Notes: generated from the letters alone by a model not told the origin. 64,000 nt of DNA from an uncultured Acholeplasmataceae bacterium (GCA_905203475.1 CAJKWD010000002.1:1658-65657), one strand, 5' to 3'; positions 8,061 to 50,461 are shown, numbered from the stretch's first letter. Made by a program: numbers and translations.

Positions 8061-8073
8061 TATTCTCTTTTTT
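8049..8073 (+). terminator. Rho-independent terminator
   Basis: gagaatat-tta-atattctc hairpin overlapping the stop codon, followed by T6. Confidence 0.7.
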
Positions 8074-8149
8074 ATGTAAATCAGAAAACAGTCTTTTCTT
8101 TTCTGAAAAATAGGGTATAATAATGATGAATTTAGATGTAGGTGATAAG

Positions 8150-9469: not shown

Positions 9470-9523
9470 TATCTTGTTTGAAAGTTTCATATAATTTGAT
9501 ATAATATAGTAGGATGTGATGGT

Positions 9524-14420: not shown

Positions 14421-15536
14421 ATGTTAAATGGATTAGAAATGGATCAATTAGCAAAAATAAAGGTAATTGGTGTCGGTGGAGGTGGAAATAACGCCGTAAA
14501 CCGTATGATTGAGTCAGGAGTACAAGGGGTAGACTTTATTGTTGCAAATACAGATTTACAAGTTTTAAATAATTCAAAGTCACCAGTTAAGATTCAAATT
14601 GGTGCAGAACTTACAAATGGACTTGGAGCAGGAGCAAACCCTCAAGTAGGAAAAGAGGCTGCATTAGAGACAAAGGCAGAAATTGAAGCTGCTTTAGAAG
14701 GTGCTGATATGGTTTTCATCACTTGTGGTATGGGTGGTGGAACTGGTACAGGAGCAGCACCAGTTATCGCTGAAATTGCTCAAAATTTAGGAGCATTAAC
14801 AGTAGGTATTGTTACAAAGCCATTTTCATTTGAAGGAAAGAAAAGAATGAGCCAAGCATTAGCTGGGTTAGAAGAATTAAAGAAAAATGTAGATACATTA
14901 ATTGTAATACCAAATGATCGTTTAAGAGAAATTATCGATAAACAAACACCATTATTAGATTCATTTAAAGAAGTTGATAATGTATTAAGACGTGGAGTAC
15001 AATCAATTTCAGATTTAATTGCGGTTGCAGGGTTAATTAATCTAGATTTTGCTGACGTCAAAGCAGTTATGCAAAATCGTGGTAATGCTTTAATTGGTAT
15101 TGGTATGGGTGTTGGAGAAGATCGTGCTGCAGAAGCTGCTAGACAAGCAGTATCTAGTCCGCTTTTAGAGACAAGTATTGATGGAGCAACAGATGCTATT
15201 ATCAATGTAACAGGTGGCTCTAATTTAACATTATTTGAAGTAGAAGAAGCAGCTGATGTGATTCGTAAAAGTGCTAATACAGATATTAATACAATCTTTG
15301 GTGCTGTTATTAATGAAAACTTAAACGATGAAATTATTGTAACTGTTATTGCAACAGGATTTGAAGATGATGATAAAGTAAAAGATGCACAACATACATC
15401 TACAGAACAACAACCAAAAAGAGAAGATATTGCATTTACACGTAGTGAATTAAATCGTGATTTAGACACAGATGATGATTCGTCATCTAGCCCTGATATC
15501 GATATTCCTCCATTTTTAAGAAGAAGAGAATTTTAA
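14421..15536 (+). CDS. ftsZ: Cell division GTPase FtsZ
   Basis: [13 protein letters not shown], the GGGTGTG tubulin signature, and a C-terminal DIPPFLRRR peptide. Confidence 0.98.
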
Positions 15537-15557
15537 AAGGACATGTGTCCTTTTTTT
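15535..15557 (+). terminator. ftsZ terminator
   Basis: aaaaggac-atgt-gtcctttt hairpin followed by a T-run. Confidence 0.7.
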
Positions 15558-15630
15558 CTGTCAAATAGAGTAAAGTATAGTTGCAAATAGTAAATAAATT
15601 ATCCTTTTTGGAATATTTTGTCAAAAAAGC

Positions 15631-15659
15631 TTGTATTCTTTTTGGAAACATGATATATT
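15631..15659 (+). promoter_or_regulatory. Sigma-A-type promoter (TTGTAT-17-TATATT with TG extension)
   Basis: -35 at 15631-15636 and -10 at 15654-15659, with TG at 15651-15652. Confidence 0.45.
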
Positions 15660-15665
15660 TTAGTT

Positions 15666-15760
15666 GTAGGAAGAAATTCCTACGGGGATTCTACCCTGAA
15701 AAGGGTGGAGTAGTTTTAATTTCTACGACGGGTGGGAAGCGTATCTTCCCATCTTTTTTT
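15666..15760 (+). ncRNA. Candidate ~95-nt small RNA or leader of unknown class
   Basis: Sits between its own promoter and the terminator GGGAAG-cgtat-CTTCCC + T7 (15734-15760). Two hairpins (15675-15690 and 15691-15708). GGGTGG is duplicated (15703 and 15730), which allows alternative pairing with CTACCC. Confidence 0.35.
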
Positions 15761-15770
15761 GTTTAAATAA

Positions 15771-15777
15771 TTCGACA
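15771..15777 (-). promoter_or_regulatory. Spo0A box (TGTCGAA on the minus strand) overlapping the -35 region of the spoIIGA promoter
   Basis: TTCGACA is an exact reverse complement of the 0A-box core. TGaTATTTT extended -10 at 15796-15804. Confidence 0.45.
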
Positions 15778-15819
15778 TGATTTCAACAAGATACATGATA
15801 TTTTATTCATGGTGATGCT

Positions 15820-16602
15820 ATGAAAGTATATCTTGATCTTGTTTTTTTTATTAACTTTGGGTTTGATTTTATTCTTTTATTAAGTGTTTCTTATCTTTTA
15901 AAAAGAGGAAGTACAATTTTTTCTTGTATCAAAGGCGCTTTGGTAGGAGCACTATCCATTTTCTTTTTGTTTTTACCCTTAAACTCTTTTTCTTTATTTC
16001 TATTAAAAGGATTGGTTAGTGTTGTGATGATACTTGTAACATTTCATTATCAAAATAAACGCTATTTTATCAAAAATATGGTTTACTTATATTTAAATAG
16101 TATTGTCTTAGGTGGAGGGCTTTATTTTCTAAATGTACAATTTGCTATGAAGCAAAAGGGACTTATATTTTTTCACAATGGTGTTTCTTTGAATGTATGG
16201 TTGCTATTCATCTTATCGCCTATGATTCTTTATTTGTACTTAAAACAATTAAAGCAATTAAAAGTAAATTACGCATCGTATTATCAAGTATCATTTGTAT
16301 GGAAGAAAAAGAAATATCAAATGACTGCTTTTTTAGATACAGGAAATCAGATACAAGATCCGTATTTTAAGCGTCCAGTATTACTCATTAGTCCCAATGT
16401 TTTAAAAAACAAGATACAGTCACCAATTTATATTCCATACCATGCAGTCGGAAAAGATGGTATGCTTTCCTGTTTTTTATTAGATAGTATTCATATTGAA
16501 GGGGTAGGTGATCGTAAGAAAGTATTAGTAGGAATATTAGACGATAAAATAAGAATGGATGGAATAGAGATGATATTAGGAACAAAAGTATTGGAGGGTT
16601 AA
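15820..16602 (+). CDS. spoIIGA: Sigma-E processing aspartic peptidase SpoIIGA
   Basis: Five N-terminal TM segments, the FLDTGNQ active-site motif, and a position immediately upstream of sigE. Confidence 0.92.
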   Translation: MKVYLDLVFFINFGFDFILLLSVSYLLKRGSTIFSCIKGALVGALSIFFLFLPLNSFSLFLLKGLVSVVMILVTFHYQNKRYFIKNMVYLYLNSIVLGGGLYFLNVQFAMKQKGLIFFHNGVSLNVWLLFILSPMILYLYLKQLKQLKVNYASYYQVSFVWKKKKYQMTAFLDTGNQIQDPYFKRPVLLISPNVLKNKIQSPIYIPYHAVGKDGMLSCFLLDSIHIEGVGDRKKVLVGILDDKIRMDGIEMILGTKVLEG

Positions 16603-17295
16603 ATGTTAAAGAGAATATGGAATTTTTTAAAACAATTATTATGGGATGAGTATAATTTATTTTTTGTTGGAAGTAGTGATAAATTACCAGAACCATTATC
16701 TAGGGAAGAAGAAACAAAATACGTAGAACTTTCTATGCAAGGAGATGAAAAAGCACGGGCAAAATTAATTGAACATAATTTAAGATTGGTTGTATTCTTA
16801 TCAAAAAAATATGAAAATACAGGAATCGATTTAGAAGATTTAGTAAGTATTGGGACTATTGGATTAATTAAAGGAGTCAATACTTATAAACTAGATAAGA
16901 ATATTAAATTAGCAACCTATGCTTCTAGATGTATTGATAATGAAATTTTAATGTATTTAAGAAAAAATAAAAAGAGAAGGACAGAAATTAGTTTTGAAGA
17001 CAGTTTAAGTTATGATGGAGAAGGAAATGAGTTACATTTAGAAGATGTTTTAGGAACAGATGCGGACATTGTTACGAAAGGATTAGAAGAAGAAACAGAG
17101 AAGAAATTGTTATATCAAGAAATTGCTAAATTAAAGGGTAGAGATAAAGAAATTATGATATTAAGATATGGGTTATTTGGACAAAAAGAAAAGACTCAAA
17201 AAGAAGTAGCTACTATGTTAAATATTAGTCAATCATATATTTCTCGTATTGAAAAGAAAGTAATCAAACACTTAAAAGGAACGGTACAATCATAG
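16603..17295 (+). CDS. sigE: Sporulation sigma factor E (pro-sigma-E)
   Basis: Pro-sequence followed by LPEPLSREEE, NLRLVVFLSKKY, IGTIGLIKGVNTY and ISQSYISRIEKK. Confidence 0.95.
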   Translation: MLKRIWNFLKQLLWDEYNLFFVGSSDKLPEPLSREEETKYVELSMQGDEKARAKLIEHNLRLVVFLSKKYENTGIDLEDLVSIGTIGLIKGVNTYKLDKNIKLATYASRCIDNEILMYLRKNKKRRTEISFEDSLSYDGEGNELHLEDVLGTDADIVTKGLEEETEKKLLYQEIAKLKGRDKEIMILRYGLFGQKEKTQKEVATMLNISQSYISRIEKKVIKHLKGTVQS

Positions 17296-17315
17296 TTGCC
17301 GTTTTTTTTGAAAAT

Positions 17316-17324
17316 TGATATAAT
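17316..17324 (+). promoter_or_regulatory. Extended -10 promoter element (TGaTATAAT)
   Basis: Lies 27 nt upstream of the GT39 start codon, after the sigE stop codon. Confidence 0.4.
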
Positions 17325-17350
17325 GAAACATAGTAAAAGTAGGTGTCAGT

Positions 17351-19198
17351 ATGAGACGTAAAAAGAAGAAAACAGTTGAGAAATTTACTTATGAGAAAAC
17401 CAAAAAAAGAGAAAAATTTACAAAAGTAGATTGGGTTTGTCTAAGTATTATTGTGATTATTTTTGCTATTTTCGCATTTTCTCATTTAGGAACGACGAAG
17501 ATGGCTAATACGTATTGGAAGCCAGATATGAGTGGTGATTCTGTTATATTAGATATTGGTGATGCAGAAATAGACGCTATTTATTATTTAGTAGGAGTTG
17601 GAAATGATCCTTATGGAAATGTAGCTGATTTAAAAGATGTTAACTTTGAAATAGAAGCATCTGCTGATCAAATCAATTGGAAACCAGTCTCTTTAATTAA
17701 TGATATATCAATGTATAGTTGGACAGAAATACCTGTTTCTATTATTGGAAATCGCTATATACGAATACGAGGCTATCATACCGCAGTGGTAATGAATGAA
17801 ATTGGATTTAAAATAGCTGGTAAACAAAAACTGGCACAAGTAAAATACGTCGATGGAACAAGTTATTCCTATACAGGGAAAGAATTAATTGATGAACAAG
17901 ATAAAATATCATTGAATCCATCTTATTATGATTCCACTTATTTTGATGAGATATATCATGCGAGAACTGCTTATGAACAATTAAAAGGGTATCCAATTTA
18001 TGAGAATACACACCCAGTCTTAGGAAAAGAAATAATATCAATTGGGATTGCTATATTTGGTATGAATCCATTTGGATGGAGAGTAGCAGGTGTTGTCTTT
18101 GGTATTCTCATGTTACCAATCTTATATGAATTTTTAAAACAAATATTTAAAAAACCAATTATTTGTTTTATTGGCACTTTTCTCTTTGCCTTTGATTTTA
18201 TGCATTTTACTCAATCTAGAATTGCTACCATTGATACTTATGCCGTTATATTTACAATACTGATTTACTATTTCATGTATCGTTATTATCGGACGAGTTT
18301 TTACGATACTGATTTAAAGAAAACGTATAAACCATTGTTATGGTGTGGAATCTTTGTTGGAATTGGGTTTGCTAGTAAATGGAATGTTGCCTATGGCTTT
18401 ATTGGAATTGCTGTCTTGTTCTTTATGAATATCTATCGTCGTTATAAAGAATATATACATGCCAAAGAAATGGTCACAGTAAAGCATTCAACAGATGAAA
18501 TGGATCAACACGTATATGAAAGTTTTATTCCTAACTTAAAAAAGACAATTCTTCGTTGTATTTTATACTTTGTAATTATTCCATTATTGATTTATTATCT
18601 TTCTTTTATATTTATTTATGATATAACAAATATTGTCCAGTATACAAAAGATGTCATTGATTACAATGTTCATATGTTTCAATATCATAATGATTTAGTT
18701 GCTTCACATCCATATCAGTCTGCTTGGTATGAGTGGCCATTGATCATACGTCCAATTTGGTATGCATGGAATGAATCAACTGTTCAAATGGGAGCGGTAA
18801 GTAGTATTTCTGCCTTTGGAAATCCATTTGTATGGTGGGGTGGATTGATTGCTATGATAATTACTTTGATATTTGCCATCAAAAAGAAAGATAAAATTGC
18901 TTGGTTTATCGTTATCGGTTATCTCTCTGTTTATCTACCGTGGGTTTATATCACCAGAATTACATTTATTTATCACTATTATCCAGCTGTTATTTTCTTA
19001 GTTCTAGCACTTGCATATATTGCAAATAAAATAGTAGAAAAATGGAAATGGGGTAAACAATGTATTCTAATTTATGCGTCATTATCATTTATTTGTTTTA
19101 TATACTTTTATCCAATTTTATCAGGAAGTTGGACGACGAGAGAATATTTAAAACAATTACAGTGGTTTCCAACATGGACTTTTATGACAGGTGATTGA
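17351..19198 (+). CDS. GT-C fold, PMT/GT39-like polyprenol-phosphate-sugar protein glycosyltransferase with a discoidin-like loop insertion
   Basis: YFDEIYHARTAYE...YENTHPVLGKE..GI..FGMNPFGWR (the loop-1 DE motif of the PMT family). More than 10 TM segments. C-terminal HPYQSAWYEWPL. Residues ~55-160 resemble an F5/8 type C domain (FEIEASADQINWKPV...NRYIRIRG). Confidence 0.75.
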   Translation: MRRKKKKTVEKFTYEKTKKREKFTKVDWVCLSIIVIIFAIFAFSHLGTTKMANTYWKPDMSGDSVILDIGDAEIDAIYYLVGVGNDPYGNVADLKDVNFEIEASADQINWKPVSLINDISMYSWTEIPVSIIGNRYIRIRGYHTAVVMNEIGFKIAGKQKLAQVKYVDGTSYSYTGKELIDEQDKISLNPSYYDSTYFDEIYHARTAYEQLKGYPIYENTHPVLGKEIISIGIAIFGMNPFGWRVAGVVFGILMLPILYEFLKQIFKKPIICFIGTFLFAFDFMHFTQSRIATIDTYAVIFTILIYYFMYRYYRTSFYDTDLKKTYKPLLWCGIFVGIGFASKWNVAYGFIGIAVLFFMNIYRRYKEYIHAKEMVTVKHSTDEMDQHVYESFIPNLKKTILRCILYFVIIPLLIYYLSFIFIYDITNIVQYTKDVIDYNVHMFQYHNDLVASHPYQSAWYEWPLIIRPIWYAWNESTVQMGAVSSISAFGNPFVWWGGLIAMIITLIFAIKKKDKIAWFIVIGYLSVYLPWVYITRITFIYHYYPAVIFLVLALAYIANKIVEKWKWGKQCILIYASLSFICFIYFYPILSGSWTTREYLKQLQWFPTWTFMTGD

Positions 19199-19214
19199 TT
19201 CACCTGTTTTTATT
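19187..19214 (+). terminator. Rho-independent terminator
   Basis: acaggtga-ttgat-tcacctgt perfect 8-bp stem followed by TTTTaTT. Confidence 0.8.
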
Positions 19215-19241
19215 GCGATAAATGTGTAAAGATGATACAAT
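19213..19241 (+). promoter_or_regulatory. Sigma-A promoter of pilin-like gene 1 (TTGCGA-17-TACAAT, TG-extended)
   Basis: -35 at 19213-19218 and -10 at 19236-19241. Confidence 0.5.
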
Positions 19242-19266
19242 AAAAGTATCATAGGGAGTGGTTAAG

Positions 19267-20997
19267 GTGAAGATGTCAAAGAAAGCATTTACTTTAATTG
19301 AGTTAATTGGAGTAATTGCTGTTCTAGCGGTTATTTTACTTGTGGCATTACCTTCATTGACGAGAACATTACGTAATAATGCAAATCAGCAATATGAAAG
19401 TGTATTGAGTGATATTTTTTTAGCAGCAGAACAGTATACTTTAATAAATAAAGCGCAATTTCCTCAACTGGAAACACCAGGAGGAAGAGCTACTGTTACA
19501 ATTAAAGAATTAAAAGAAGCAGGTTATTTAAGTCAGAATTTAGAAAATCCAAAAACAGGAGAGAAGTTTCTAGACACAGATTATGTATTAATTGAAATAA
19601 ATAATGATTATACTAGAAATTACAAATTTAATGAAGGAGAAGCAACTGCAAGTCCTGATGCTACCGCACCTACTTATGCAGTAAATCCAGGAGCAGCAGT
19701 ATGGACCAATCAAGGCAAAACAGTAACTATTCATTATCCTGATGTTAGTAAAAACAGATATATATTTGAATATTCTCTAGATGGCGGAATCCATTGGACA
19801 ATAACACAAGAATTAAATACCGAAATATGGTTTTCTGAAAATGGTTCTATTATCGCACGAGTAAGAGATTCATATAATGAACGAGATAATTTAAATGGAG
19901 GAGTATTTAATGTAACAAGAATTGATAAGATACCCCCAACTTGTGTATCATCAGGAGGAAGTACTGAATGGACAAATGGTACAAGAAAGATTATTGGAGT
20001 ATGTAGTGATACAGGTGGATCCGGATGCAAAGGTAATATTTCATATACATATAATGCTGCAGAAAATACCAATTGGAATATTAATAACGCAGGACCAGCA
20101 GGAGCAGGACAGGCAGGGACTGTTTATGATAATGCTGGAAATAGTGCTCCATGTCAGGCCAATCAATCGATTCGTTTAGATCGAAAAAAACCAACATGTA
20201 CAAGTAGTGGTGGTAACTCTAATTGGGTAATAGGAGGATCTGTTAAATTAACTGGTACATGTAATGATGATGGCTCAGGATGTAAGGGAAATGTTACTAA
20301 GACGTTTTATCCAGAAACAGATACATCAACTGCATCTCCAGGAACTGTATATGATAAAGCTGGAAACAGTACAGTTTGCCCAGCCAACCAACATGTTCAT
20401 GTTACGAATAAATTAGATGCCCCAATTATTACGAATCCGACTGGAGGAAATTGGGTAAACTACAGTTATGCATTAACAGTAAAAACACCAAATAATAAAG
20501 TGAATGTCGCCTACTGGCAATGGCGATATGCAAACACGAGTTGGGCGACATATTCAAATTCCGCTAAAAACACATTTACAACTACTCAATACACAACAGA
20601 ACGTAATGAAGCAACATATATTCGTTATTGTATATCAAGTGGCCAATGTTCTTCTGAAGCGTCTACAATGATTCGTATTGATAAAACACCACCATATTGG
20701 AGAGTTGCAATGCATGCGGGAGGATACCATTATTCAGATGGATCTTATCAACCTTTTACCTGCTATGCGAAAATTGATATATATGATTCTGCTTCAGGAT
20801 TAGAAGGTATATATAATTTAGTTGGAAATTCTGGATCAATTATGATGGAACATGGTCCATTATATGGTGCTGCGGCAACAGGACCAGATGGATTTGTTAT
20901 GGGAAGCTTTGGTGCTTATTATGCATATTATGGATTCTCAGTTTGTGATATGGTAGGAAATTGTGCGAATCAACCAAGAGTTGCTGGATATTGTTAG
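19267..20997 (+). CDS. Large modular type IV pilin-like protein 1 (prepilin N-terminal cleavage/methylation domain plus 4-Cys modules)
   Basis: KKA|FTLIELIGVIAVLAVILL class III signal with Glu+5. A small pilin head is followed by two D..(P)PTC...GSGCKG...D(N/K)AGNS..C modules. The start is ambiguous (GTG 19258, GTG 19267 or ATG 19273); GGGAG RBS at 19254-19258. Confidence 0.85.
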   Translation: MKMSKKAFTLIELIGVIAVLAVILLVALPSLTRTLRNNANQQYESVLSDIFLAAEQYTLINKAQFPQLETPGGRATVTIKELKEAGYLSQNLENPKTGEKFLDTDYVLIEINNDYTRNYKFNEGEATASPDATAPTYAVNPGAAVWTNQGKTVTIHYPDVSKNRYIFEYSLDGGIHWTITQELNTEIWFSENGSIIARVRDSYNERDNLNGGVFNVTRIDKIPPTCVSSGGSTEWTNGTRKIIGVCSDTGGSGCKGNISYTYNAAENTNWNINNAGPAGAGQAGTVYDNAGNSAPCQANQSIRLDRKKPTCTSSGGNSNWVIGGSVKLTGTCNDDGSGCKGNVTKTFYPETDTSTASPGTVYDKAGNSTVCPANQHVHVTNKLDAPIITNPTGGNWVNYSYALTVKTPNNKVNVAYWQWRYANTSWATYSNSAKNTFTTTQYTTERNEATYIRYCISSGQCSSEASTMIRIDKTPPYWRVAMHAGGYHYSDGSYQPFTCYAKIDIYDSASGLEGIYNLVGNSGSIMMEHGPLYGAAATGPDGFVMGSFGAYYAYYGFSVCDMVGNCANQPRVAGYC

Positions 20998-20999
20998 AA

Positions 21000-21027
21000 A
21001 GGGAGAAATTTCTCGCCTTTTAATTAG
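21000..21027 (+). terminator. Imperfect hairpin followed by TTTT
   Basis: aaaggGAGAaattTCTCgccttt. Confidence 0.45.
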
Positions 21028-21061
21028 CATATAGTAAATTTCATGCATTGTATTTTCCTGC

Positions 21062-21090
21062 TTGAAAACATGTGAAAAGTATTGTAAAAT
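21062..21090 (+). promoter_or_regulatory. Sigma-A promoter of pilin-like gene 2 (TTGAAA-17-TAAAAT)
   Basis: -35 at 21062-21067 and -10 at 21085-21090. Confidence 0.5.
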
Positions 21091-21130
21091 TGTTATATGA
21101 ACATAAGAGATTATATACAGGAGGTTATAT

Positions 21131-22918
21131 ATGAGCAGTGAGATGCGATTGAAAAAGGGTTTTACATTAATTGAATTAATTGGAGTAATTGCTGTTTTAG
21201 CAGTTATTTTATTGATAGCACTTCCAACGATTACAAGCTCTGTTCGTCGTAATAATGAGCAAAAATACGCAAATACATTACAAGACATTTATTTAGCTGC
21301 AGAACAGTATACCCTAACTTATAAGGAAAAATTTCCTCAGTTAGATGAATCGGGTGGACGTGTAAAAGTTACGATAGCCGATTTGAAAGAAGCAGGTTAT
21401 TTAGATCAGCATTTAGAAAATCCTAAAACGGGGAAAGAATTTCTAGATACAGATTATGTATTAGTAGAAGTAGATAAAGATTATACAAGAAAATATAAAT
21501 TTAATGAAGGAGAAGAAACAAAAACCCCAGATACTACAGCACCTACTTATACTGTAAATCCAGGTGCAACTGTATGGACGAACAAAGGGAAGACAGTAAC
21601 GATTCATTACCCTAATGTCAGTAAAAATAGATATGTATTTGAATATTCTTTAGATGGTGGTGTCCACTGGATTGTAACCCAAGAATTAAATACAAATGTA
21701 TGGTTTGCCGATAATGGCAATATTATCGCAAGAGTTAGGGATACATACAACGAGCGCGAAAGCCTCAATGGAGGAGTATTTAATGTAACAAAAATTGATA
21801 AAATTCCACCAACATGTAAGAGTTCTGGAGGAAGTAATGATTGGACTGGGGGCTCAAGAACAATTACAGGAATATGTAGCGATACTGGTGGTTCTGGTTG
21901 CAAAGGGAACATCTCTTATACATATAATGGAACTACAGGAGAAAATTACAGTATTACCAATGCCGGACCAGCTGGAGTTGGAAAAGCGGGTGTTGTTTAT
22001 GATAATGCTGGAAATAGTGCTACTTGTCAGGCCAATCAAACAGTAAAGATTGATAAGAAAGCACCGACTTGTACGACAAGTAAGAAAGTAAATACAAGTT
22101 CTGTAACAATTACTGGAACTTGTAGTGATACAGGTGGCTCTGGATGTAAAGGAAATGCCACTAAAACCGTAACTGCTAATGGAAGTTATTCACCAGGTAG
22201 TGTTTCTGATAATGTTGGTCATACTACTACTTGTCCATCGACAAATGTAACGGAAGTAGATAAAACACCGCCAAATTGTCCAACTGTTACAGCAGACCAT
22301 ACAGCCAATAAATGGACAAAAGATAATGTGGTATTAACAATTACCCCAACAAGTGATACGAAAAGTTGGGATTGGTATAGAGGAGAAGGAAACGGAACAT
22401 ATACCTATGTTGATAACAATACTGGAAAGAAAACCAAAACATTATCTAATTCCGGAAAAATATCTGGACAAATCGTCGTTCGTGATGCTGCAGGAAATAG
22501 CCGTACATGTTTTACATCTAGTTATTGGATTGATAAAGTAAAACCATTATCACCAAAATATTCTAGTATTGAGATATCTGGAGGAACCGTGACATCAAAT
22601 GATTGTGGAGGAAAAGGTGGAACAGCGTCTGATGTAAGTTGTACCATTAATATTAGAGGAAGAAGATATAGTGCAGTTAGTTTTGAATTTAATACAGTTG
22701 AAAAAGATCAACATTCAGGAGTAAGTTATTCACAATATAAATGGAATCACAATGGAAGTGGAACAAAATGTCCAAACTGGTTTACAGGAGATTGTGGAGA
22801 TTGGAAGGCTGGAGTTGGAGGAACATTTACATATACGGATTTCGCATGGCGAAGTGTAGATAACGTTGGAAATGCAGGATATGCATTAAATATTAGAGTT
22901 AATTTTACATGGTATTAA
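21131..22918 (+). CDS. Large modular type IV pilin-like protein 2
   Basis: MSSEMRLKKG|FTLIELIGVIAVLA. The N-terminal ~330 aa are homologous to protein 1. The C-terminal ~322 aa are identical to protein 3. Confidence 0.9.
   Translation: MSSEMRLKKGFTLIELIGVIAVLAVILLIALPTITSSVRRNNEQKYANTLQDIYLAAEQYTLTYKEKFPQLDESGGRVKVTIADLKEAGYLDQHLENPKTGKEFLDTDYVLVEVDKDYTRKYKFNEGEETKTPDTTAPTYTVNPGATVWTNKGKTVTIHYPNVSKNRYVFEYSLDGGVHWIVTQELNTNVWFADNGNIIARVRDTYNERESLNGGVFNVTKIDKIPPTCKSSGGSNDWTGGSRTITGICSDTGGSGCKGNISYTYNGTTGENYSITNAGPAGVGKAGVVYDNAGNSATCQANQTVKIDKKAPTCTTSKKVNTSSVTITGTCSDTGGSGCKGNATKTVTANGSYSPGSVSDNVGHTTTCPSTNVTEVDKTPPNCPTVTADHTANKWTKDNVVLTITPTSDTKSWDWYRGEGNGTYTYVDNNTGKKTKTLSNSGKISGQIVVRDAAGNSRTCFTSSYWIDKVKPLSPKYSSIEISGGTVTSNDCGGKGGTASDVSCTINIRGRRYSAVSFEFNTVEKDQHSGVSYSQYKWNHNGSGTKCPNWFTGDCGDWKAGVGGTFTYTDFAWRSVDNVGNAGYALNIRVNFTWY
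21950..22917 (+). repeat. 968-bp direct repeat, copy A (3' end of pilin-like gene 2)
   Basis: Reading both copies side by side, I found no mismatch to 25637-26604 (offset 3687). Identity ends at the third base of the stop codon (TAA versus TAG). Confidence 0.9.
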
Positions 22919-22965
22919 AATCATCAATCGTAAATACTAAGAAAAATGCCAACTTACAATTGCAA

Positions 22966-22990
22966 CCGCACCAAAATGGTGCGGCTTTTT
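22966..22990 (+). terminator. Rho-independent terminator between gene 2 and convergent sigG
   Basis: ccgcacca-aaa-tggtgcgg followed by cTTTTT. Confidence 0.8.
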
Positions 22991-23003
22991 ATATATCTCA
23001 ATT

Positions 23004-23780
23004 TTATTGAATCATTTTTTTGATATGATCAATCCCAGATTTTTCTAATCGTGAGATTTGAGCTTGACTAATACCAATTTCTTCTGCCAATTCCATTTGT
23101 GTTTTACCAATAAAATATCTAGAAGTAAGAACATAGCGTTCTTTTTCTTTTAATTTTTGTAACGCATCATGTAAAGCAATTTTAGTTTCTAAAGAATAGT
23201 TCTTATTCTTTTTATCTTCTAATTGATCCTCTAAATAAATCGTATCTCCACCATCATTATAGATAGGTTCAAACATGGAAATCGCCTCTTTTAATGAATC
23301 TAAAGCGTTACTTACTTCATATTCTGATAGATTCAGTTCCTTCGCTACTTCTCTAATTGTAGGTTCTTTTCCTTGGATAGCAGTTAATTCTTCTTTTTTC
23401 TTTAATGCTTTATATGCAGTATCTTTGATACTTCTAGCAATCCTAACACTATTATTATCTCTCAGGTATCTTTTTACTTCACCTAGAATCATGGGTACAC
23501 TGTAGGTGGAAAATTTTACTTCATATGATAAATCAAAATGATCAATGGCTTTAATTAAACCAATACAACCAACTTGAAACAGATCATCCATGTTATCGAC
23601 ACGGTGATTAAATTTTTTTAAAACGCTTAACACGAGTTTTAAATTTCCTTGTATTAACTGATCCTTGGCAGATAAGTCACCTTGTTTTAATTTTTGAAAT
23701 AATTGAATCATTTCTTCATTAGTTAAAACTTTAATATTCGCAGTATTCACGCCACAAATTTCTACTTTGTGTCGTGCCAT
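23004..23780 (-). CDS. sigG: Sporulation sigma factor G
   Basis: MARHKVEICGVNT..., DLFQVGCIGLIKAIDHFD, KFSTYSVPMILGEVKRYLRDN, ISQAQISRLEK. AAGGAG RBS upstream of ATG 23780. The gene is on the opposite strand to spoIIGA-sigE. Confidence 0.93.
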   Translation of the reverse strand: MARHKVEICGVNTANIKVLTNEEMIQLFQKLKQGDLSAKDQLIQGNLKLVLSVLKKFNHRVDNMDDLFQVGCIGLIKAIDHFDLSYEVKFSTYSVPMILGEVKRYLRDNNSVRIARSIKDTAYKALKKKEELTAIQGKEPTIREVAKELNLSEYEVSNALDSLKEAISMFEPIYNDGGDTIYLEDQLEDKKNKNYSLETKIALHDALQKLKEKERYVLTSRYFIGKTQMELAEEIGISQAQISRLEKSGIDHIKKMIQ

Positions 23781-23847
23781 AAATAGCTCCTTTCTGTCTA
23801 TTAGAATATTGTACAAAAAAAGAGGGATTATACATCTATCTTGATAC

Positions 23848-23876
23848 TTGCAATATGTAGTGAAATATTATAAAAT
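23848..23876 (+). promoter_or_regulatory. Sigma-A promoter of pilin-like gene 3 (TTGCAA-17-TAAAAT)
   Basis: -35 at 23848-23853 and -10 at 23871-23876. Confidence 0.5.
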
Positions 23877-23902
23877 AAAAGATAGATAATAGGAGGCTAT
23901 GT

Positions 23903-26605
23903 ATGAGCAGTGGGATACGAATAAAAAAAGGATTTACATTAATTGAATTATTAGCTGTGATTGTAATTATTGCCGTGATTGCGTTGATCACATATCCAAC
24001 GGTTAATCGCGTAATTACCAATTCCAGGATGACAGCACTAAAAAATAGTGCTGAAGCATTATTGAAAGAAACAAATTTGCAAACAGCGATGGATAAAGTG
24101 GAAGGAAATACGCAAATTTTAATTACCGATGAAAGATTAAAATTAAAAAATAATCAATTTATTGGTGGTTTTATTTTTAAGAATGCAAATGGAAAATTAG
24201 AATTAAAAAATGTGACAAATGGATCATTTTGTATCAATGGAACAAGTGGAAATTTAAAAATTGAAAAAGGAAACTGTAGCTATTCAGATACTTCTGCCCC
24301 AACATTGACACTACAAACTGGATATATTGGTGCGACAGAAGCAATGGTACTTGCTAACGGATCTGATAATGAATCTGGCATTCGTGGATATGAATATAAA
24401 ATAGGGGATGGAAGTTATACTAAAGTATTAGGTAGTAATTTTTATCAATTTGAAGGATTAAAGAGAAATACAAGTTATAAAGTAACAGTCAGAGTCACAA
24501 ATGGAGCTGGTCTTACAACTGAAAAAAGCATTACATTTAAAACGAAAAGTATATCAGCAGCTACATTTATAGTGAGTGGTGCTTCAAAGTGGACAAATAA
24601 AAAAGATGTAACGATTAATTATCCAACCAGAGTAAGTGGCGTTACATATCGTTATAAAATAGGCAGTGGTAATTGGCAAGTACTTACGAGTGGTAAGAAA
24701 AAAGAGTTAGAAGTAAAAGAGAATACAACAATTTATGCAGAAGTGATATTAAATGGAGAAACAGTGAGTTCAAATGTTAGTATTACAAAAATAGATAATA
24801 CACCACCTGTTATTACAAGCATTAAACCAAATACAACATCTTGGGCACGTCAAGTAACGATTCAAGTCATTGCCACAGATACTCCATCTGGAATTGCTGG
24901 ATATTCATTTGACGATGGAGCAACATGGACAAGTGCCCCAACATATACTACAACTAAAAATGGAACTTATAAAATTAAAGTAAAAGATTATGCGAATAAC
25001 ATCGCAAGTGGGAAAATCACTATTAAAAATATCGATAGAACAGGACCTAAATGTGTTAGTAGTGGTGGAAGTAAGACGTGGACAAATCAATCGAGAACGA
25101 TTGTTGGTACTTGTATCGATGATGGAGAAGGTGCAGGATGTGTTTCCAAAACAGTTTCTAAGACAATTAGTACTGACGCTAATGCAACTATGTCACCAGG
25201 TGTTGTAAAAGATGAAGCAGGAAATGAAACAACATGTCCAGCTACTGAAGTTGTTAGAGTAGATAAAACAAAACCAACATGTACTGTATCCTTGAGTAAT
25301 ACAAATTGGACAAATAAAGCAGTTACTGCATATGGTAAGTGTCAAGATTCACTAAGTGGTTGTATAACAAATAATCTTAAGAAAGAATATACAACACAGA
25401 TGAATGATAAAGTAACTTTAGGTACAGTAAAAGATAAAGCTGGAAATGAGACAAATTGTACTTCTAGCCAAAATATCAAAATAGATACAACTCCTCCTAC
25501 TTGTACATCTTCTGGAGGAAGTACTGTTTGGACTAGTGGAACAAGAACAATTACCGGAGTATGTAATGATACTGGTGGTTCTGGATGTAAGGGTAATATT
25601 TCATATACATATAATGGAACTTCCGGTCAAAACTATAGTATTACCAATGCCGGACCAGCTGGAGTTGGAAAAGCGGGTGTTGTTTATGATAATGCTGGAA
25701 ATAGTGCTACTTGTCAGGCCAATCAAACAGTAAAGATTGATAAGAAAGCACCGACTTGTACGACAAGTAAGAAAGTAAATACAAGTTCTGTAACAATTAC
25801 TGGAACTTGTAGTGATACAGGTGGCTCTGGATGTAAAGGAAATGCCACTAAAACCGTAACTGCTAATGGAAGTTATTCACCAGGTAGTGTTTCTGATAAT
25901 GTTGGTCATACTACTACTTGTCCATCGACAAATGTAACGGAAGTAGATAAAACACCGCCAAATTGTCCAACTGTTACAGCAGACCATACAGCCAATAAAT
26001 GGACAAAAGATAATGTGGTATTAACAATTACCCCAACAAGTGATACGAAAAGTTGGGATTGGTATAGAGGAGAAGGAAACGGAACATATACCTATGTTGA
26101 TAACAATACTGGAAAGAAAACCAAAACATTATCTAATTCCGGAAAAATATCTGGACAAATCGTCGTTCGTGATGCTGCAGGAAATAGCCGTACATGTTTT
26201 ACATCTAGTTATTGGATTGATAAAGTAAAACCATTATCACCAAAATATTCTAGTATTGAGATATCTGGAGGAACCGTGACATCAAATGATTGTGGAGGAA
26301 AAGGTGGAACAGCGTCTGATGTAAGTTGTACCATTAATATTAGAGGAAGAAGATATAGTGCAGTTAGTTTTGAATTTAATACAGTTGAAAAAGATCAACA
26401 TTCAGGAGTAAGTTATTCACAATATAAATGGAATCACAATGGAAGTGGAACAAAATGTCCAAACTGGTTTACAGGAGATTGTGGAGATTGGAAGGCTGGA
26501 GTTGGAGGAACATTTACATATACGGATTTCGCATGGCGAAGTGTAGATAACGTTGGAAATGCAGGATATGCATTAAATATTAGAGTTAATTTTACATGGT
26601 ATTAG
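23903..26605 (+). CDS. Large modular type IV pilin-like protein 3 (900 aa)
   Basis: MSSGIRIKKG|FTLIELLAVIVIIAVIAL. Pilin head, then FN3/Ig-like modules (SGIRGYEYKIGDG.., SGIAGYSFDDGATW), four 4-Cys modules, and a C-terminus shared with protein 2. Confidence 0.9.
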   Translation: MSSGIRIKKGFTLIELLAVIVIIAVIALITYPTVNRVITNSRMTALKNSAEALLKETNLQTAMDKVEGNTQILITDERLKLKNNQFIGGFIFKNANGKLELKNVTNGSFCINGTSGNLKIEKGNCSYSDTSAPTLTLQTGYIGATEAMVLANGSDNESGIRGYEYKIGDGSYTKVLGSNFYQFEGLKRNTSYKVTVRVTNGAGLTTEKSITFKTKSISAATFIVSGASKWTNKKDVTINYPTRVSGVTYRYKIGSGNWQVLTSGKKKELEVKENTTIYAEVILNGETVSSNVSITKIDNTPPVITSIKPNTTSWARQVTIQVIATDTPSGIAGYSFDDGATWTSAPTYTTTKNGTYKIKVKDYANNIASGKITIKNIDRTGPKCVSSGGSKTWTNQSRTIVGTCIDDGEGAGCVSKTVSKTISTDANATMSPGVVKDEAGNETTCPATEVVRVDKTKPTCTVSLSNTNWTNKAVTAYGKCQDSLSGCITNNLKKEYTTQMNDKVTLGTVKDKAGNETNCTSSQNIKIDTTPPTCTSSGGSTVWTSGTRTITGVCNDTGGSGCKGNISYTYNGTSGQNYSITNAGPAGVGKAGVVYDNAGNSATCQANQTVKIDKKAPTCTTSKKVNTSSVTITGTCSDTGGSGCKGNATKTVTANGSYSPGSVSDNVGHTTTCPSTNVTEVDKTPPNCPTVTADHTANKWTKDNVVLTITPTSDTKSWDWYRGEGNGTYTYVDNNTGKKTKTLSNSGKISGQIVVRDAAGNSRTCFTSSYWIDKVKPLSPKYSSIEISGGTVTSNDCGGKGGTASDVSCTINIRGRRYSAVSFEFNTVEKDQHSGVSYSQYKWNHNGSGTKCPNWFTGDCGDWKAGVGGTFTYTDFAWRSVDNVGNAGYALNIRVNFTWY
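25034..26218 (+). repeat. Tandem ~70-90-aa 4-Cys modules within gene 3
   Basis: Module starts are at 25034, 25262, 25484, 25739 and 25946. Each reads D..(P)P.C ... G.C.D..(S)GC ... D.AGN...C. Confidence 0.7.
25637..26604 (+). repeat. 968-bp direct repeat, copy B (3' end of pilin-like gene 3)
   Basis: See copy A. Confidence 0.9.
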
Positions 26606-26628
26606 AAAGTGATATAGTGAGGTGAGGT

Positions 26629-27009
26629 ATGAACAAGAAAAAAATAATATATTTGCTAATTGGCGCTGTTGTTGTACTGATAGTGCTTGTCATTATGATT
26701 ATATTTATGTTTAACAAAAATGAATCATCAAAAGAAAAAGAACCTAAAACAACGACTCCAAAAACACAATATACGGATACGGGTAAAGATTCAGAAGAGC
26801 CAAAGAGTACAGAAGAACAACTACAAATATTAGTAGGTGAAAATCAGTCAATAGAACGATATGAACAACAAGCAGATGGAACATATTATGTATATGTGAA
26901 GCCAAAAAAAGAAAGTAATATTCAAACAGGGTATTATGTAGTAAACTTGGATACAGAAGAAGTAGAATATCATTCGTCAGTTCAAATGACAGTAGGAAGT
27001 GAGTCTTAG
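26629..27009 (+). CDS. Single-pass membrane protein, unknown function
   Basis: GAGGTGAGG RBS. N-terminal TM segment, a Lys/Glu/Thr-rich linker and a small C-terminal domain. Probably cotranscribed with gene 3. Confidence 0.65.
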   Translation: MNKKKIIYLLIGAVVVLIVLVIMIIFMFNKNESSKEKEPKTTTPKTQYTDTGKDSEEPKSTEEQLQILVGENQSIERYEQQADGTYYVYVKPKKESNIQTGYYVVNLDTEEVEYHSSVQMTVGSES

Positions 27010-27020
27010 ACTCACTTTTT
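26998..27020 (+). terminator. Rho-independent terminator
   Basis: agtgagtc-tta-gactcact followed by TTTT. Confidence 0.8.
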
Positions 27021-27067
27021 AAATGCATAAAAAATATTAATTTACATATATTTGGTTAGGTGGTATC

Positions 27068-27301
27068 ATGCGATTATCTGATTTACAACATAAAGATGTT
27101 GTTAATATGATCGATGGAAAATTAGTTGGTAATATTATTGATGTGTCGATTAATGCCTTGAATGGGAATATGGAGAAATTAATTGTAGAGAAAAGTAAAT
27201 TTTTTGTCTCTTTATTTTCTAATAAAAATGAAATAGAGATAAAATGGGAACAAATCGAAAAAATTGGAGAAGATGTGATATTAGTTCGAATTGATTTGTG
27301 A
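27068..27301 (+). CDS. ylmC: YlmC/YmxH-family (PRC-barrel) sporulation protein
   Basis: MRLSDLQHKDVVNMIDGKLVGNIIDV....EKIGEDVILV. ylmC lies in the ylm gene cluster just downstream of sigG in Bacillus subtilis. Confidence 0.85.
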   Translation: MRLSDLQHKDVVNMIDGKLVGNIIDVSINALNGNMEKLIVEKSKFFVSLFSNKNEIEIKWEQIEKIGEDVILVRIDL

Positions 27302-27325
27302 TATAATGAAATAGGTGACTATATT

Positions 27326-27460
27326 ATGGCAATAAAAACACAGATTAAAAATGATGATGTATTAGATGAATTATTAAAGAAATATAATTTAGAATTAGTA
27401 TTAGATCCGAAAGAGCAAAAGAAGGATCAGAAAAAAGAAAAATCAAGTAAAAAACAATAG
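27326..27460 (+). CDS. Candidate 44-aa Lys-rich small protein
   Basis: AGGTGA RBS 7 nt upstream of the ATG. Below the ORF-track length cut-off. No homology recognised. Confidence 0.3.
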   Translation: MAIKTQIKNDDVLDELLKKYNLELVLDPKEQKKDQKKEKSSKKQ

Positions 27461-27474
27461 AAAGTGGTGTGGCA

Positions 27475-28494
27475 ATGAAGATATTATTACATTCAGATAA
27501 AATGAAAGAAGTAGAAAAAAGTGGTGTAGGACGTGCAATTATTCATCAACAGGAAGCTTTGAGATTAAATCATGTACCATATACATTAAATCCGAAAGAT
27601 GATTATGATATTGTTCATATTAATACTATTTTTCCAGAATCGTATTTGATGGGCAAAAGAGCGAAAAAAGCAGGTAAGAAAGTAATTTTTCATGCTCATT
27701 CGACAGAAGAAGATTTTCGCAATTCGTTTATTCTTTCAAATCAAGTGGCACCACTTTTTAAAACATGGTTGAAGAAATTATATTCTTCTGCTGATTATAT
27801 TATTACACCAACGCCTTATTCTAAAAAATTATTAGAAGGATATGATTTAGGAAAGCCAATTGTAGCAATTTCCAATGGAATTGATTTAAAATTTTATCAA
27901 AAAGGTCCTCATGATCGTGAAGATTTTAGAAAAAAATTTGGTTTTAAAGAAACAGATAAAGTGATTATGAGTGTTGGATTATATTTAGAAAGAAAAGGAA
28001 TTACAGAGTTTGTAGAACTAGCAAAACGTATGCCTGAATATCAATTTATTTGGTTTGGTTATACGAATTTAAATACAGTTCCTAGTTCTGTTAGAGAAGC
28101 TGTAACGACAAAATTAGATAATTTACACTTTCCAGGTTATTTACCTCGTGAAGAGTTAAAAAAAGCATATTTTGGCGCTGATTTATTTTTATTTATGACA
28201 CATGAAGAAACAGAAGGAATTGTATTATTAGAGGCATTAGCTTGTAAAATACCGACATTAATCCGAGACATTCCAATTTATGAAGGTTGGTTTGAAGATG
28301 GTAAAAATATTTATAAAGCGAAAACTTTAGAAGAATTTCAAGATAAAATTAAGAAGATTGTAGAACATCAATTACCAGATGTTACAGAACAAGGGTATTT
28401 AGAAGCTCAAAAGCGTGATATTAAAGAAATTGGAAAAGAATTAAAACAAGTGTATGAAAAAGTAATGGACTTAGATACAGTAGAGAATAAATAA
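27475..28494 (+). CDS. GT4-family (GT-B) glycosyltransferase
   Basis: The motif region THEETEGIVLLEALACKIP is typical of GT4. Confidence 0.85.
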   Translation: MKILLHSDKMKEVEKSGVGRAIIHQQEALRLNHVPYTLNPKDDYDIVHINTIFPESYLMGKRAKKAGKKVIFHAHSTEEDFRNSFILSNQVAPLFKTWLKKLYSSADYIITPTPYSKKLLEGYDLGKPIVAISNGIDLKFYQKGPHDREDFRKKFGFKETDKVIMSVGLYLERKGITEFVELAKRMPEYQFIWFGYTNLNTVPSSVREAVTTKLDNLHFPGYLPREELKKAYFGADLFLFMTHEETEGIVLLEALACKIPTLIRDIPIYEGWFEDGKNIYKAKTLEEFQDKIKKIVEHQLPDVTEQGYLEAQKRDIKEIGKELKQVYEKVMDLDTVENK

Positions 28495-28540
28495 TCTACT
28501 GTTTTTCTTTTGGTCATGATATAATAGAGATGGTGATTCT

Positions 28541-29068
28541 GTGATAGAAGATTTATTTCAAAAAGATGGAAGTTATAGTAGACTTGGTTTTTTATTATCA
28601 AATGAAGGTGTATTAATTCCCTTTGGTTATAGAGATGTGTATGATGTAGTTTTGAATGTAGGATATGAAAATGTTGATTATCTTTATCACAATACTTCTT
28701 TATTAGAAGAATTGAAACATAATCCTCATTTAGAAGTATTAAAAACACAAATGCAATGTGATTATGGACCAGAGTTAATTTATTCTCCTTTTTTTCCGCA
28801 AAATAATCTTTTAACCATACTTGCTCATGATTATCAAATGACGGCTTTTAAAATGGTTAATACACCTGATACAGGAGAAAAGAGAGACTTTTTAGTAATT
28901 GCACCCCATCTTAGTAGTGAAGCTTATGAGATTTTATTTACATTAAATCAAACAAAAATTTTTAAAAGGTTACAATTATGTCGATGGATACAAAGCAATG
29001 AGACATATGTTGACTATGAAACTATGGATGACTTTTTAAGTGATTATCAAACAAAGAAAAGAAAGTAG
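28541..29068 (+). CDS. Hypothetical cytoplasmic protein
   Basis: GTG start with a GGTGA RBS. No recognised motif. Confidence 0.55.
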   Translation: MIEDLFQKDGSYSRLGFLLSNEGVLIPFGYRDVYDVVLNVGYENVDYLYHNTSLLEELKHNPHLEVLKTQMQCDYGPELIYSPFFPQNNLLTILAHDYQMTAFKMVNTPDTGEKRDFLVIAPHLSSEAYEILFTLNQTKIFKRLQLCRWIQSNETYVDYETMDDFLSDYQTKKRK

Positions 29069-29075
29069 GTATTAT

Positions 29076-30086
29076 ATGCATAAGAAATTAAATATTGTAA
29101 TATGGTTTATAGCACTCTTATTAGCACTTATTTTAATTTTTATTCTTTTCTTTTCTAATAAAGTAAAATTATATGAAAAGAAATTCCGTTATTTTGATAC
29201 GGATATTACGATTCGATTCTATGAAGATGACCCAGAAAAAGTAAAAAAAGCTTGGAATAAAATACAATCTATTTATGAACAATATCATCAACTAGTCAAT
29301 GCTCATAAAGCATATGATAATATAGTAAATATTCATACAATTCGCTATAATAAAGAAGATAGTGATGTGCTTACATTACCTCCTAAGCTATATGAAATGT
29401 TAGAATATAGTCATAATTGGGTTCAAAAGAGTGGAGGTGCTTTTCAAATCAATCAAGGAGCTGTGATTGATGGTTGGAGCCGTTATTTAAAGACAGAAAA
29501 GAAAGTTCCATCCCCTGAACAAATTGATCAGTGGAAGCAAGAAGACCAACAGTCACTCGTGTTGTTAGGAGATGATCAAATTCAAAATACTCACCCAATG
29601 ATAGAGCTTGGCAAAATTCCTCTTGGATTTGCAAATGATGAAATTATAAAGTATTTGAAAAAAGAGGGAATAACTCAATATTTAATTCAAGAAGGTGGCA
29701 ATGCCACAGCAGGATTTTCTCTTGATAATAAACCGTATAAAGTAGCTTTAGAAATATTAAATAGAAATGATGTAGCGACAATAGTACGTTTAAAGAATCG
29801 TACTATTGTTACAAATGTAAGCGATATAGATAGGTATGAATATGACGGAAAAAGCTATCACCTTCTTATCGACCCAAGTACTTCATATCCAGCTGATAAA
29901 ATTGATAAGGTAACAGTAATTACGAAAGATTCTAAAACAGCTTATACGCTGAGTACAGTATTATATATGATGGATGTAGAACAGGGTAAAAAGATGATTG
30001 AAAATGTATCAGATGTTGATGTATTATGGTTAGATTCTAATGGAAAGAGAAGCTTTACAAAAGGTTTTTCCCAATATGAATCTTAA
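29076..30086 (+). CDS. apbE: FAD:protein FMN transferase (ApbE family), membrane-anchored
   Basis: FQINQGAVIDGWS, GKIPLGFANDEI, EGGNATAG and HLLIDPSTSYP match ApbE conserved blocks. Confidence 0.75.
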   Translation: MHKKLNIVIWFIALLLALILIFILFFSNKVKLYEKKFRYFDTDITIRFYEDDPEKVKKAWNKIQSIYEQYHQLVNAHKAYDNIVNIHTIRYNKEDSDVLTLPPKLYEMLEYSHNWVQKSGGAFQINQGAVIDGWSRYLKTEKKVPSPEQIDQWKQEDQQSLVLLGDDQIQNTHPMIELGKIPLGFANDEIIKYLKKEGITQYLIQEGGNATAGFSLDNKPYKVALEILNRNDVATIVRLKNRTIVTNVSDIDRYEYDGKSYHLLIDPSTSYPADKIDKVTVITKDSKTAYTLSTVLYMMDVEQGKKMIENVSDVDVLWLDSNGKRSFTKGFSQYES

Positions 30087-50251: not shown

Positions 50252-50270
50252 ATAAATATATTAAATGTCT

Positions 50271-50461
50271 GTGTGAAGGAGTACATGATTTATTTTAATA
50301 AAGAGACTATGTGGTTGGTGGAAACATAGATAAAAGAATCGTGGAAGACATCATACGTTAAGAACATACGTGTGCTCGCGTTAAGAGATGAGAGTATAGA
50401 CTAGTCTATGAATTAAGGTGGCACCGCGGGGTAACTCGTCCTTAAGTCATGGGCTTTTTTA
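50271..50461 (+). promoter_or_regulatory. T-box riboswitch leader, tRNA-Asp specific (specifier GAC at 50347-50349)
   Basis: Stem I was folded by hand: guguga/ucauac lower helix, AGGAGUA 5' loop, caugauuu/gaaucgug upper helix, and 3' loop GAA-GAC-A. AGAGA bulge and distal loop are present. T-box sequence AAUUAAGGUGGCACCGCG at 50411-50428, with UGGC pairing to a G73 discriminator. U-run at 50455-50460. Confidence 0.85.

Follow-up and report, generated by a model that had tools for sequence, protein, structure and literature searches.

A perfect 968-bp direct repeat on either side of sigG, the probable footprint of recombination between modular pilin-like genes in an uncultured gut bacterium

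At the Neisseria pilE/pilS loci, non-reciprocal transfer of tracts between pilin paralogues at conserved anchors gives rise to mosaic pilins, and concerted evolution and unequal crossing-over in tandem module families are known from the streptococcal M-like and alpha-C/Rib proteins and from the MgPa repeats of Mycoplasma. Elements of the skin type, as in sigK, interrupt a gene, carry a site-specific recombinase and short att sites, and restore function upon excision. Modular type IV pilins comprise more than 1,200 proteins with 264 architectures, some of them with many repeated domains (Raynaud et al., 2021; PMC8179133). Here we describe three modular pilin-like genes (genes 1 to 3) around the sporulation sigma factor gene sigG in a stretch of 64,000 nucleotides (nt) from an uncultured Acholeplasmataceae bacterium (GCA_905203475.1 CAJKWD010000002.1:1658-65657; the whole stretch is called the window, and positions are counted from its first letter). 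Genes 2 and 3, which lie on either side of sigG, share an identical 968-nt end, and this direct repeat is very probably the footprint of recent intrachromosomal recombination between paralogous modular pilin-like genes.

In the protein alignment the family is composed of a head, either the short head A (genes 1 and 2) or the long head B with DUF7743 (gene 3), two to four copies of a Cys module of about 85 residues with four cysteines (PxC..SGG..WT..G.C.D.GGSGCKGN..YDNAGN..C..D...P), and a tail, which is X, ending in ..GYC, in gene 1 and Y, ending in ..FTWY, in genes 2 and 3; a tail of type Z is found in a related species. The genes and the parts of the repeat are as follows.

19258-20997, plus strand: pilin-like gene 1, 579 amino acids (aa) from a GTG start (574 aa from 19273 in other assemblies, P0188); short A head, two Cys modules, X tail; PF07963
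21131-22918, plus strand: pilin-like gene 2, 595 aa (P0148); A head, two Cys modules, Y tail; PF07963, TIGR02532
21791-21949, plus strand: diverged homologous flank in gene 2; covers the first half of a Cys module, with the conserved motif that encodes CSDTGGSGCKGN; 159 nt, of which 33 are mismatched
21950-22917, plus strand: repeat copy 1, the last 968 nt of gene 2; second half of a Cys module (C2b), module-deletion junction, Y tail
22059-22073, plus strand: module-loss junction in gene 2, where one 255-nt Cys module is missing in the alignment with other strains
23004-23780, minus strand: sigG, 258 aa; between the repeat copies, on the strand opposite to spoIIGA-sigE
23903-26605, plus strand: pilin-like gene 3, 900 aa (P0146); long B head (pilin helix, fibronectin type III (FnIII)/immunoglobulin (Ig)-like domains, DUF7743), Cys modules, Y tail
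25478-25636: diverged homologous flank in gene 3, the counterpart of 21791-21949
25637-26604, plus strand: repeat copy 2, the last 968 nt of gene 3
about 25746-25760: the same module-loss junction in gene 3

An earlier note on this DNA, made by a model from the sequence alone, had described a perfect direct repeat of 968 bp with abrupt boundaries, and direct comparison together with self-BLAST of the whole window bears this out. Positions 21950-22917 and 25637-26604, at an offset of 3687, are identical at 968 of 968 bases, and extension of this run by even one base fails at both ends. Identity at this offset is 80% at 21800-21899, 100% in the repeat and about 0.2-0.4, that is background, elsewhere. 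Self-BLAST returned a single match of 1131 nt (21791-22920 against 25478-26608, 97.0% identity), with all 33 mismatches confined to the 159 nt located 5' of the exact run, so that this flank is 79% identical (about 75-80% in the earlier note); homology ends upstream of the flank. Neither a third copy nor any other long repeat was found by this search of the 64 kb. On the right side the run ends with the second base of the stop codon, which is TAA (22916-22918) in gene 2 and TAG (26603-26605) in gene 3. Given flanks of 79% identity, the chance of 968 consecutive matches is 0.79^968, about 1e-99. Genes 1 and 2 share a diverged 5' half, as had been noticed, with the previous estimate of 80-85% being slightly high: nucleotide identity is 77% over 890 nt (19288-20166 against 21161-22039) and amino-acid identity 63% over 418 residues.

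Comparison with other strains gives the repeat a direction. Over its first approximately 124 nt the repeat is 99.8% identical to gene 2 of other strains, against about 27 differences per 100 nt to the equivalent part of their gene 3/900. In the alignment, gene 2 of the window tracks gene 2 of the other strains through the second half of module 2, and from about 22059-22073 onwards it follows the last part of the succeeding module and then the Y tail, which means that exactly one 255-nt module has been lost in register. Gene 3 of the window possesses the gene-2-type half-module, which elsewhere occurs in gene 2 only, and the same module-deletion junction; it follows that a tract of at least 124 nt was transferred from gene 2, as donor, to gene 3, as recipient. 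Its start lies just past the best-conserved part of the coding sequence (…GGSGCKGNISYTYN), and it extends into the Y tail, which was already common to genes 2 and 3 before the conversion, as strain L006 shows. That identity stops at the stop codon is explained by the end of homology downstream, where a terminator and sigG come after gene 2, and a gene for a 126-aa protein comes after gene 3. An identity tract far above its flank and with sharp edges, markers of the donor in the recipient and a donor that has been kept are all found together, and recent conversion, which the earlier note had proposed beside duplication, now with a polarity from gene 2 to gene 3 provided by the gene-2-specific markers, is the best-supported origin of the identical tail.

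The Y tail differs by 1.3-3.5% between strains and by 0 within the window and within L006, a pattern which is concerted evolution; both genomes are probably short-read assemblies. An old segmental duplication held identical by purifying selection might be considered in its place, as the repeat is coding sequence in both places and its end coincides with the stop codon. Selection at the protein level, however, would not keep every synonymous site over 322 codons, the same tail is 1.3-3.5% apart between strains with flanks less than 0.5% apart, and the gene-2-specific markers are present in gene 3, so that such an origin is scarcely credible.

Gene conversion between the paralogues was probably the second of two steps. 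The conserved module-motif DNA (CSDTGGSGCKGNISYTYN) would supply the homology for RecA-type recombination both between paralogues and between adjacent modules; gene 2 would have lost one module via in-register unequal recombination, and a non-reciprocal tract would subsequently have copied the half-module with the new junction from gene 2 into gene 3. Dependence on RecA and the order of the two steps are what we infer from these traces. The window includes a gene for LexA, which would fit an SOS/RecA-proficient organism.

As a perfect repeat of this length is prone to assembly errors, which the earlier note had pointed out, the reality of the two copies was assessed with contigs from many independent human-gut assemblies, retrieved by exact-protein look-ups of sigG, of the PMT-like protein encoded upstream of gene 1, of the 126-aa protein and of gene 1. 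Those of the same strain, with 100% identity to the window, break off at a distance of exactly k bases within the ends of the repeat, for four values of k.

L098 (MEGAHIT k127, ERR321581): ends at 22076, 127 nt into copy 1
L090 (MEGAHIT k127, ERR321581): spans 22791-25763, 127 nt into both copies
L104 (MEGAHIT k127, ERR321581): starts at 26478, 127 nt before the end of copy 2
L099 (k109): ends at 22058, 109 nt into copy 1
L093 (about k41): spans 22877-25677, 41 nt into both copies
L106 (about k41): starts at 26564, 41 nt before the end of copy 2
L102 (Logan, k31): starts at 26575, 30 nt before the end of copy 2

Since the contig ends track the boundary plus k at four k, 21950/25637 and 22917/26604 are true branch points, and this signature implies that all four junctions (gene 2 head to repeat, repeat to sigG side, gene 3 head to repeat, repeat to 126-aa gene) are present in independent data, with at least 127 identical nt at each end of the repeat. 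The concern about an assembly artefact is thereby largely answered. What such an artefact would entail is a real genome with one Y tail, or with two diverged ones, of which a collapsed repeat node was duplicated or homogenised. This would fit with the restriction of full-length genes 2 (P0148) and 3 (P0146) to a single contig, of 66,693 nt, in a collection of 15 billion proteins, with the break of all other short-read assemblies at the repeat, and with the failure of an exact look-up to find a separate contig for the 322-residue product of the repeat. The junctions, recovered at 100% identity, nevertheless demand two contexts per side in addition to the identical bases at each end, and strain L006 displays the same two-copy topology at a different spacing, 7200 nt, which makes an artefact very unlikely.

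Some points weigh against recent conversion between two resident copies as we read it. The interior of the repeat (about 22077-22790) is represented solely by the contig of the window itself, which is probably of metagenome type, and a few real differences between the copies could be hidden if one graph node was walked twice, so that the identity of the interior could partly be one by construction. L006 is likewise a short-read scaffold, to whose within-genome identity the same caveat applies, and in a short-read graph the linear arrangement looks the same as a deleted chromosome accompanied by an excised circle. Module loss followed by conversion is, moreover, the most parsimonious order and not an observation.

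The mosaic structure of the family, noticed before within the window, extends to other strains, in which all combinations of heads A and B with tails X, Y and Z occur and crossovers adjoin the conserved GGSGCKGN motif. In L006, from another sample, the order is Y tail, sigG (minus strand), pilin 890 (B-X), a 245-aa gene, pilin 900 (B'-Y) and the 126-aa gene. Its two Y copies show no difference from each other over 965 nt and 34 differences per 968 nt to the copies of the window, with sigG and the flanks less than 0.5% different. Gene 3 of the window combines sequence of two L006 genes, with a head matching that of pilin 890 (0-1 mismatch per 100 nt as far as about 25550) and, starting near 25760, a tail matching that of pilin 900. 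L005 and four short sigG contigs contain another hybrid, whose crossover differs and falls in the shared block 24464-24964. The number of modules in gene 2 is two in the window, three in the 680-aa alleles of L100, L109 and L112, and four or more in L110 and L113, in strains that are otherwise 99.8% identical. All five diverge from the window at 22073/22074, a module boundary. The flanks of the strains compared are 99.5-99.9% identical to the window, and the variable blocks 20-30% different. The coordinates of two of these alleles are given below.

L100 (= L108), 7935-9977: gene 2 allele
L109, 11859-13898: gene 2 allele

In a related species (L001-L004, long-read assemblies, about 86% nt identity) synteny is the same, including the inverted sigG. 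The two pilin genes flanking sigG there encode 582 and 583 aa and lie at a distance of 6213 nt; in the head and modules, about 1.1 kb, their identity is about 98.5%, and in the tails 50-70%. Scans of Joint Genome Institute (JGI) metagenomes gave 0 matches for the junction pattern, and with the Y-tail protein only L005.

Segmental mosaicism of this kind, with patches of 20-30% divergence in genomes otherwise 99.5-100% identical, and the non-reciprocal transfer from gene 2 to gene 3 also recall antigenic variation, in which one expressed pilin gene is diversified from silent donors as in Neisseria pilE/pilS. The three copies are, though, all complete, each with a start codon, a leader and promoter-like sites, and truncated promoterless cassettes are absent from the window; a cassette system of this type is highly improbable.

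As for the proteins, all three genes start with KK(G/A)FTLIEL followed by a hydrophobic run, the features of a class III signal peptide, and are the sole open reading frames (ORFs) of the window that carry the prepilin motif. PF07963 (N_methyl) is matched with 21.6-28.7 bits across the three genes (cut-off 21.2) and TIGR02532 with 24-33 bits by genes 2 and 3 (cut-off 16.3). An AlphaFold model of gene 3, built on an alignment of 19 sequences (mean predicted local distance difference test (pLDDT) score 68.6), consists of a helix (13-54) and a subsequent beta-sandwich array, with pLDDT of 80-93 for residues 300-770 and below 50 for residues 32-127, where the region of the globular pilin domain is poorly resolved; the C-terminal 125 residues were left unmodelled. 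Foldseek of this model against the PDB retrieved generic Ig/FnIII arrays only (GhpA, Sevenless, gp130; template modelling (TM) score at most 0.2), sequence matches in the PDB are confined to the helix of Geopilin, PilE1 and MshA, and the domains of the array are faintly matched by the Pfam models DUF7743 and Big_3_3. In a scan of genome contigs with the generic pilin leader, the matches listed are distant relatives at up to 41% identity. The designation pilin holds for the N-terminal signal and the helix only. Neither pilus assembly genes nor a prepilin peptidase were found within the 64-kb window, and a function as pilins is putative. From the domain architecture, display on a type IV filament or the cell surface is probable, as is diversifying pressure on the proteins.

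B-X is the commonest combination of head and tail among database homologues, and Y tails are restricted to the species of the window. Small single-span membrane proteins co-vary with the tail type of the upstream pilin gene: a 126-aa protein after Y, proteins of 242-245 aa after X, and a paralogue of 252 aa (25% identical) after Z. They gave no Pfam match, and their distribution suggests cassettes of tail and partner protein. The genes are located as follows.

26629-27009 of the window, 4636-5373 of L006, 12743-13501 and 15299-16027 of L001: small membrane protein genes

The surroundings of the pilin-like genes consist of cell division, sporulation and glycosyltransferase genes.

13140-14405: ftsA
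14421-15536: ftsZ
15820-16602, plus strand: spoIIGA, conserved sporulation context upstream of the insertion
16603-17295, plus strand: sigE, conserved sporulation context upstream of the insertion
17351-19198, plus strand: PMT-family (GT-C) membrane glycosyltransferase, 615 aa (Pfam PMT_4TMC, PMT, PMT_2); position conserved in the related species (L001 synteny)
19186-19208: hairpin following the PMT-family gene
22966-22984, plus strand: GC-rich hairpin (6 GC pairs out of 8) and a T run, located where gene 2 and sigG converge
26629-27009, plus strand: membrane protein gene, 126 aa, single span; 3' of every Y-tail gene at the downstream end of the locus
27068-27301: PRC-barrel gene, 77 aa
27469-28494: GT4 glycosyltransferase

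In spore-formers, spoIIGA, sigE and sigG are usually contiguous and co-directional, among the most conserved gene orders of these bacteria. Here the unit is split by about 5.7 kb, which hold the PMT-like gene and two pilin-like genes, and sigG, which had been treated before with no regard to strand, sits inverted on the minus strand (window 16603-23816). The identity of SigG is supported by NCBIfam NF006071 (379.8 bits, cut-off 372) and by the Pfam regions r2, r3 and r4, all of which were found; against the older TIGR02850 it scores 365.5 bits, under the cut-off of 457. An identical SigG protein is encoded on 12 gut-metagenome contigs. The same split layout with inverted sigG is seen in the long-read assembled related species (L001 4655-9884), and in a more distant metagenome-assembled genome (MAG), L009 (8079-11236), sigE, sigG and a pilin-like gene are colinear, an order which suggests that the pilin genes were first located downstream of sigG. 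In Bacillus, sigG is followed by a gene for a YlmC/YmxH-like sporulation protein, to which the PRC-barrel gene corresponds in position, as would be expected if an ancestral sigE-sigG-ymxH block had received the pilin genes by insertion. TfpW of Pseudomonas is a GT-C pilin glycosyltransferase and, by analogy, the PMT-like enzyme might glycosylate the neighbouring pilin-like proteins.

The hairpin at 22966-22984 is likely a terminator, which could serve both gene 2 and sigG. It alone was convincing in a promoter and terminator scan, the sites of which were no commoner than in shuffled sequence, and inspection by eye yielded no defensible SigF-, SigG- or SigE-type promoter 5' of sigG and the pilin genes. 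A reading of the locus as a mobile element was rejected, with no transposase or integrase in the window and a G+C content (GC) of the locus (0.34) close to that of the window (0.31); a plasmid search gave no match. The remaining window is ordinary chromosomal core, with murG, murB, lspA, lexA, tkt, secDF, relA, hisS/aspS and pnp. A T-box leader (50265-50446; Rfam RF00230, 110.5 bits) lies upstream of hisS-aspS, the ORFs of which overlap by 68 nt as listed (51019-52371 and 52304-53680). The nearest named FtsZ is that of Candidatus Fimihabitans intestinipullorum (84% identity), a genus filed by NCBI under Mycoplasmatota incertae sedis, and the close relatives are all uncultured gut 'Bacilli/Firmicutes' MAGs.

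The position of the repeat has a bearing on sigG itself. From geometry alone, recombination between the copies would delete 3687 bp (22918-26604), and the same process that exchanges the tails could in this way remove sigG. Along with sigG, the segment comprises the terminator, the divergent promoter region and the 5'-most 1734 nt of gene 3; the predicted product of the deletion keeps the 595-aa gene 2, ending in TAG. The excision of sigG envisaged in the earlier note is accordingly valid as geometry, but its product is convincingly seen in no assembly: a sound example of the 3687-bp deletion was not encountered among the assemblies found. One candidate, the 57-kb scaffold L100 (sample NIEL14-1), in which gene 2 (the 680-aa allele) runs straight to the 126-aa gene without sigG, was rejected as a deletion. 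An orphan 2.9-kb sigG contig of the same sample, L092, overlaps the end of that gene by its first 50 nt, L109, a contig of a sister sample in which the allele is identical, ends at the stop codon, and the form of 680 aa represents a three-module allele; L100 is best read as a path collapsed through the repeat.

A second candidate involves genes 1 and 890. In L087 (Logan ERR13612664, 1381-1760) the sequence is identical to gene 1 up to …GATTATT and then identical to the 890-type tail from GGAGTATGTAATG…, and the two parents share only 10 nt at the junction, so that a k=31 graph chimera is excluded at that point. The contig runs unbroken across the ends of the X tail and the Y tail and continues with the 245-aa gene and pilin 900, without gene 2 and sigG. 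It is one contig only and could also result from a conversion that rendered the X tails of that strain identical; L087 is a candidate for a sigG-less haplotype, not proof of one. That recombination among the pilin paralogues flanking sigG recurrently yields natural sigG-less, non-sporulating lineages, with L087 as a real example, is a tentative proposal which we regard as unlikely.

Even less probable, indeed rather remote, is a programmed or selected rearrangement, in which the direct repeats act as a sigG-excision device within a developmental or phase-variable switch. Similar direct repeats do flank sigG in two species, and the join of gene 1 head and 890-type tail in L087, which continues without sigG, would conform to such a switch. 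The 3687-bp segment, however, encodes no recombinase (sigG and the head of gene 3 are the only ORFs of at least 80 aa in 22918-25636), the repeats are coding sequence of paralogues with boundaries that vary by strain, sigG is kept in all long-read assemblies of the related species, and L087, a single contig, could be a path collapsed through a converted X tail. No short att-like site in support of a programmed event was found in the region. Likewise, an invertible switch was rejected, with zero inverted-repeat pairs in 15000-30000. Excision would not rebuild an interrupted gene, as gene 2, sigG and gene 3 are all intact beforehand.

Taken as recent conversion between resident pilin-like genes, the process is an ordinary one, gene conversion and unequal crossing-over in a tandem modular surface-protein family. 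What is new is the family and its location: in an uncultured gut lineage, very large pilin-like proteins are encoded inside a spoIIGA-sigE-sigG unit whose sigG is inverted. Between strains otherwise 99.5-100% identical this hypervariable family has its heads, tails and module number reshuffled, as is expected of surface structures under host or phage pressure. On the practical side, short-read assemblies break here at the repeat or, as in L100, skip sigG silently, and a MAG call of the kind 'sigG absent, so non-sporulating' could in this lineage be an artefact of repeat collapse. If recurrent loss of sigG were true, a locus of surface diversification would double as a hotspot for heritable loss of sporulation and offer a specific mechanism by which sporulation is frequently lost in host-adapted Firmicutes.

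Among described systems, the proteins resemble PilB and PilC of Streptococcus sanguinis in that a class III signal peptide and a pilin helix are followed by grafted domains (PMC8179133). Unlike those, they carry a long array of beta-sandwich and four-cysteine modules and belong to a recombining three-gene family, with no pilus machinery nearby and a putative assembly into filaments. With the skin element of sigK the locus shares a segment associated with a sporulation sigma factor between direct repeats whose recombination would remove it, but sigG is intact here, the repeats are 968 bp of coding sequence, a recombinase is missing, and excision would destroy function. Neisseria pilE/pilS is similar in the non-reciprocal transfer, the use of conserved stretches as homology anchors and the mosaic products, although all copies here are full-length and apparently expressible; neither silent cassettes nor a G4-type initiator came to light, though no search was aimed at them. 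As in the streptococcal M-like and alpha-C/Rib proteins and the MgPa repeats of Mycoplasma, module number varies, paralogues form hybrids and identical tracts are bounded by diverged sequence; the difference is that another protein family in another lineage is concerned, and that this family encloses an essential sporulation regulator.

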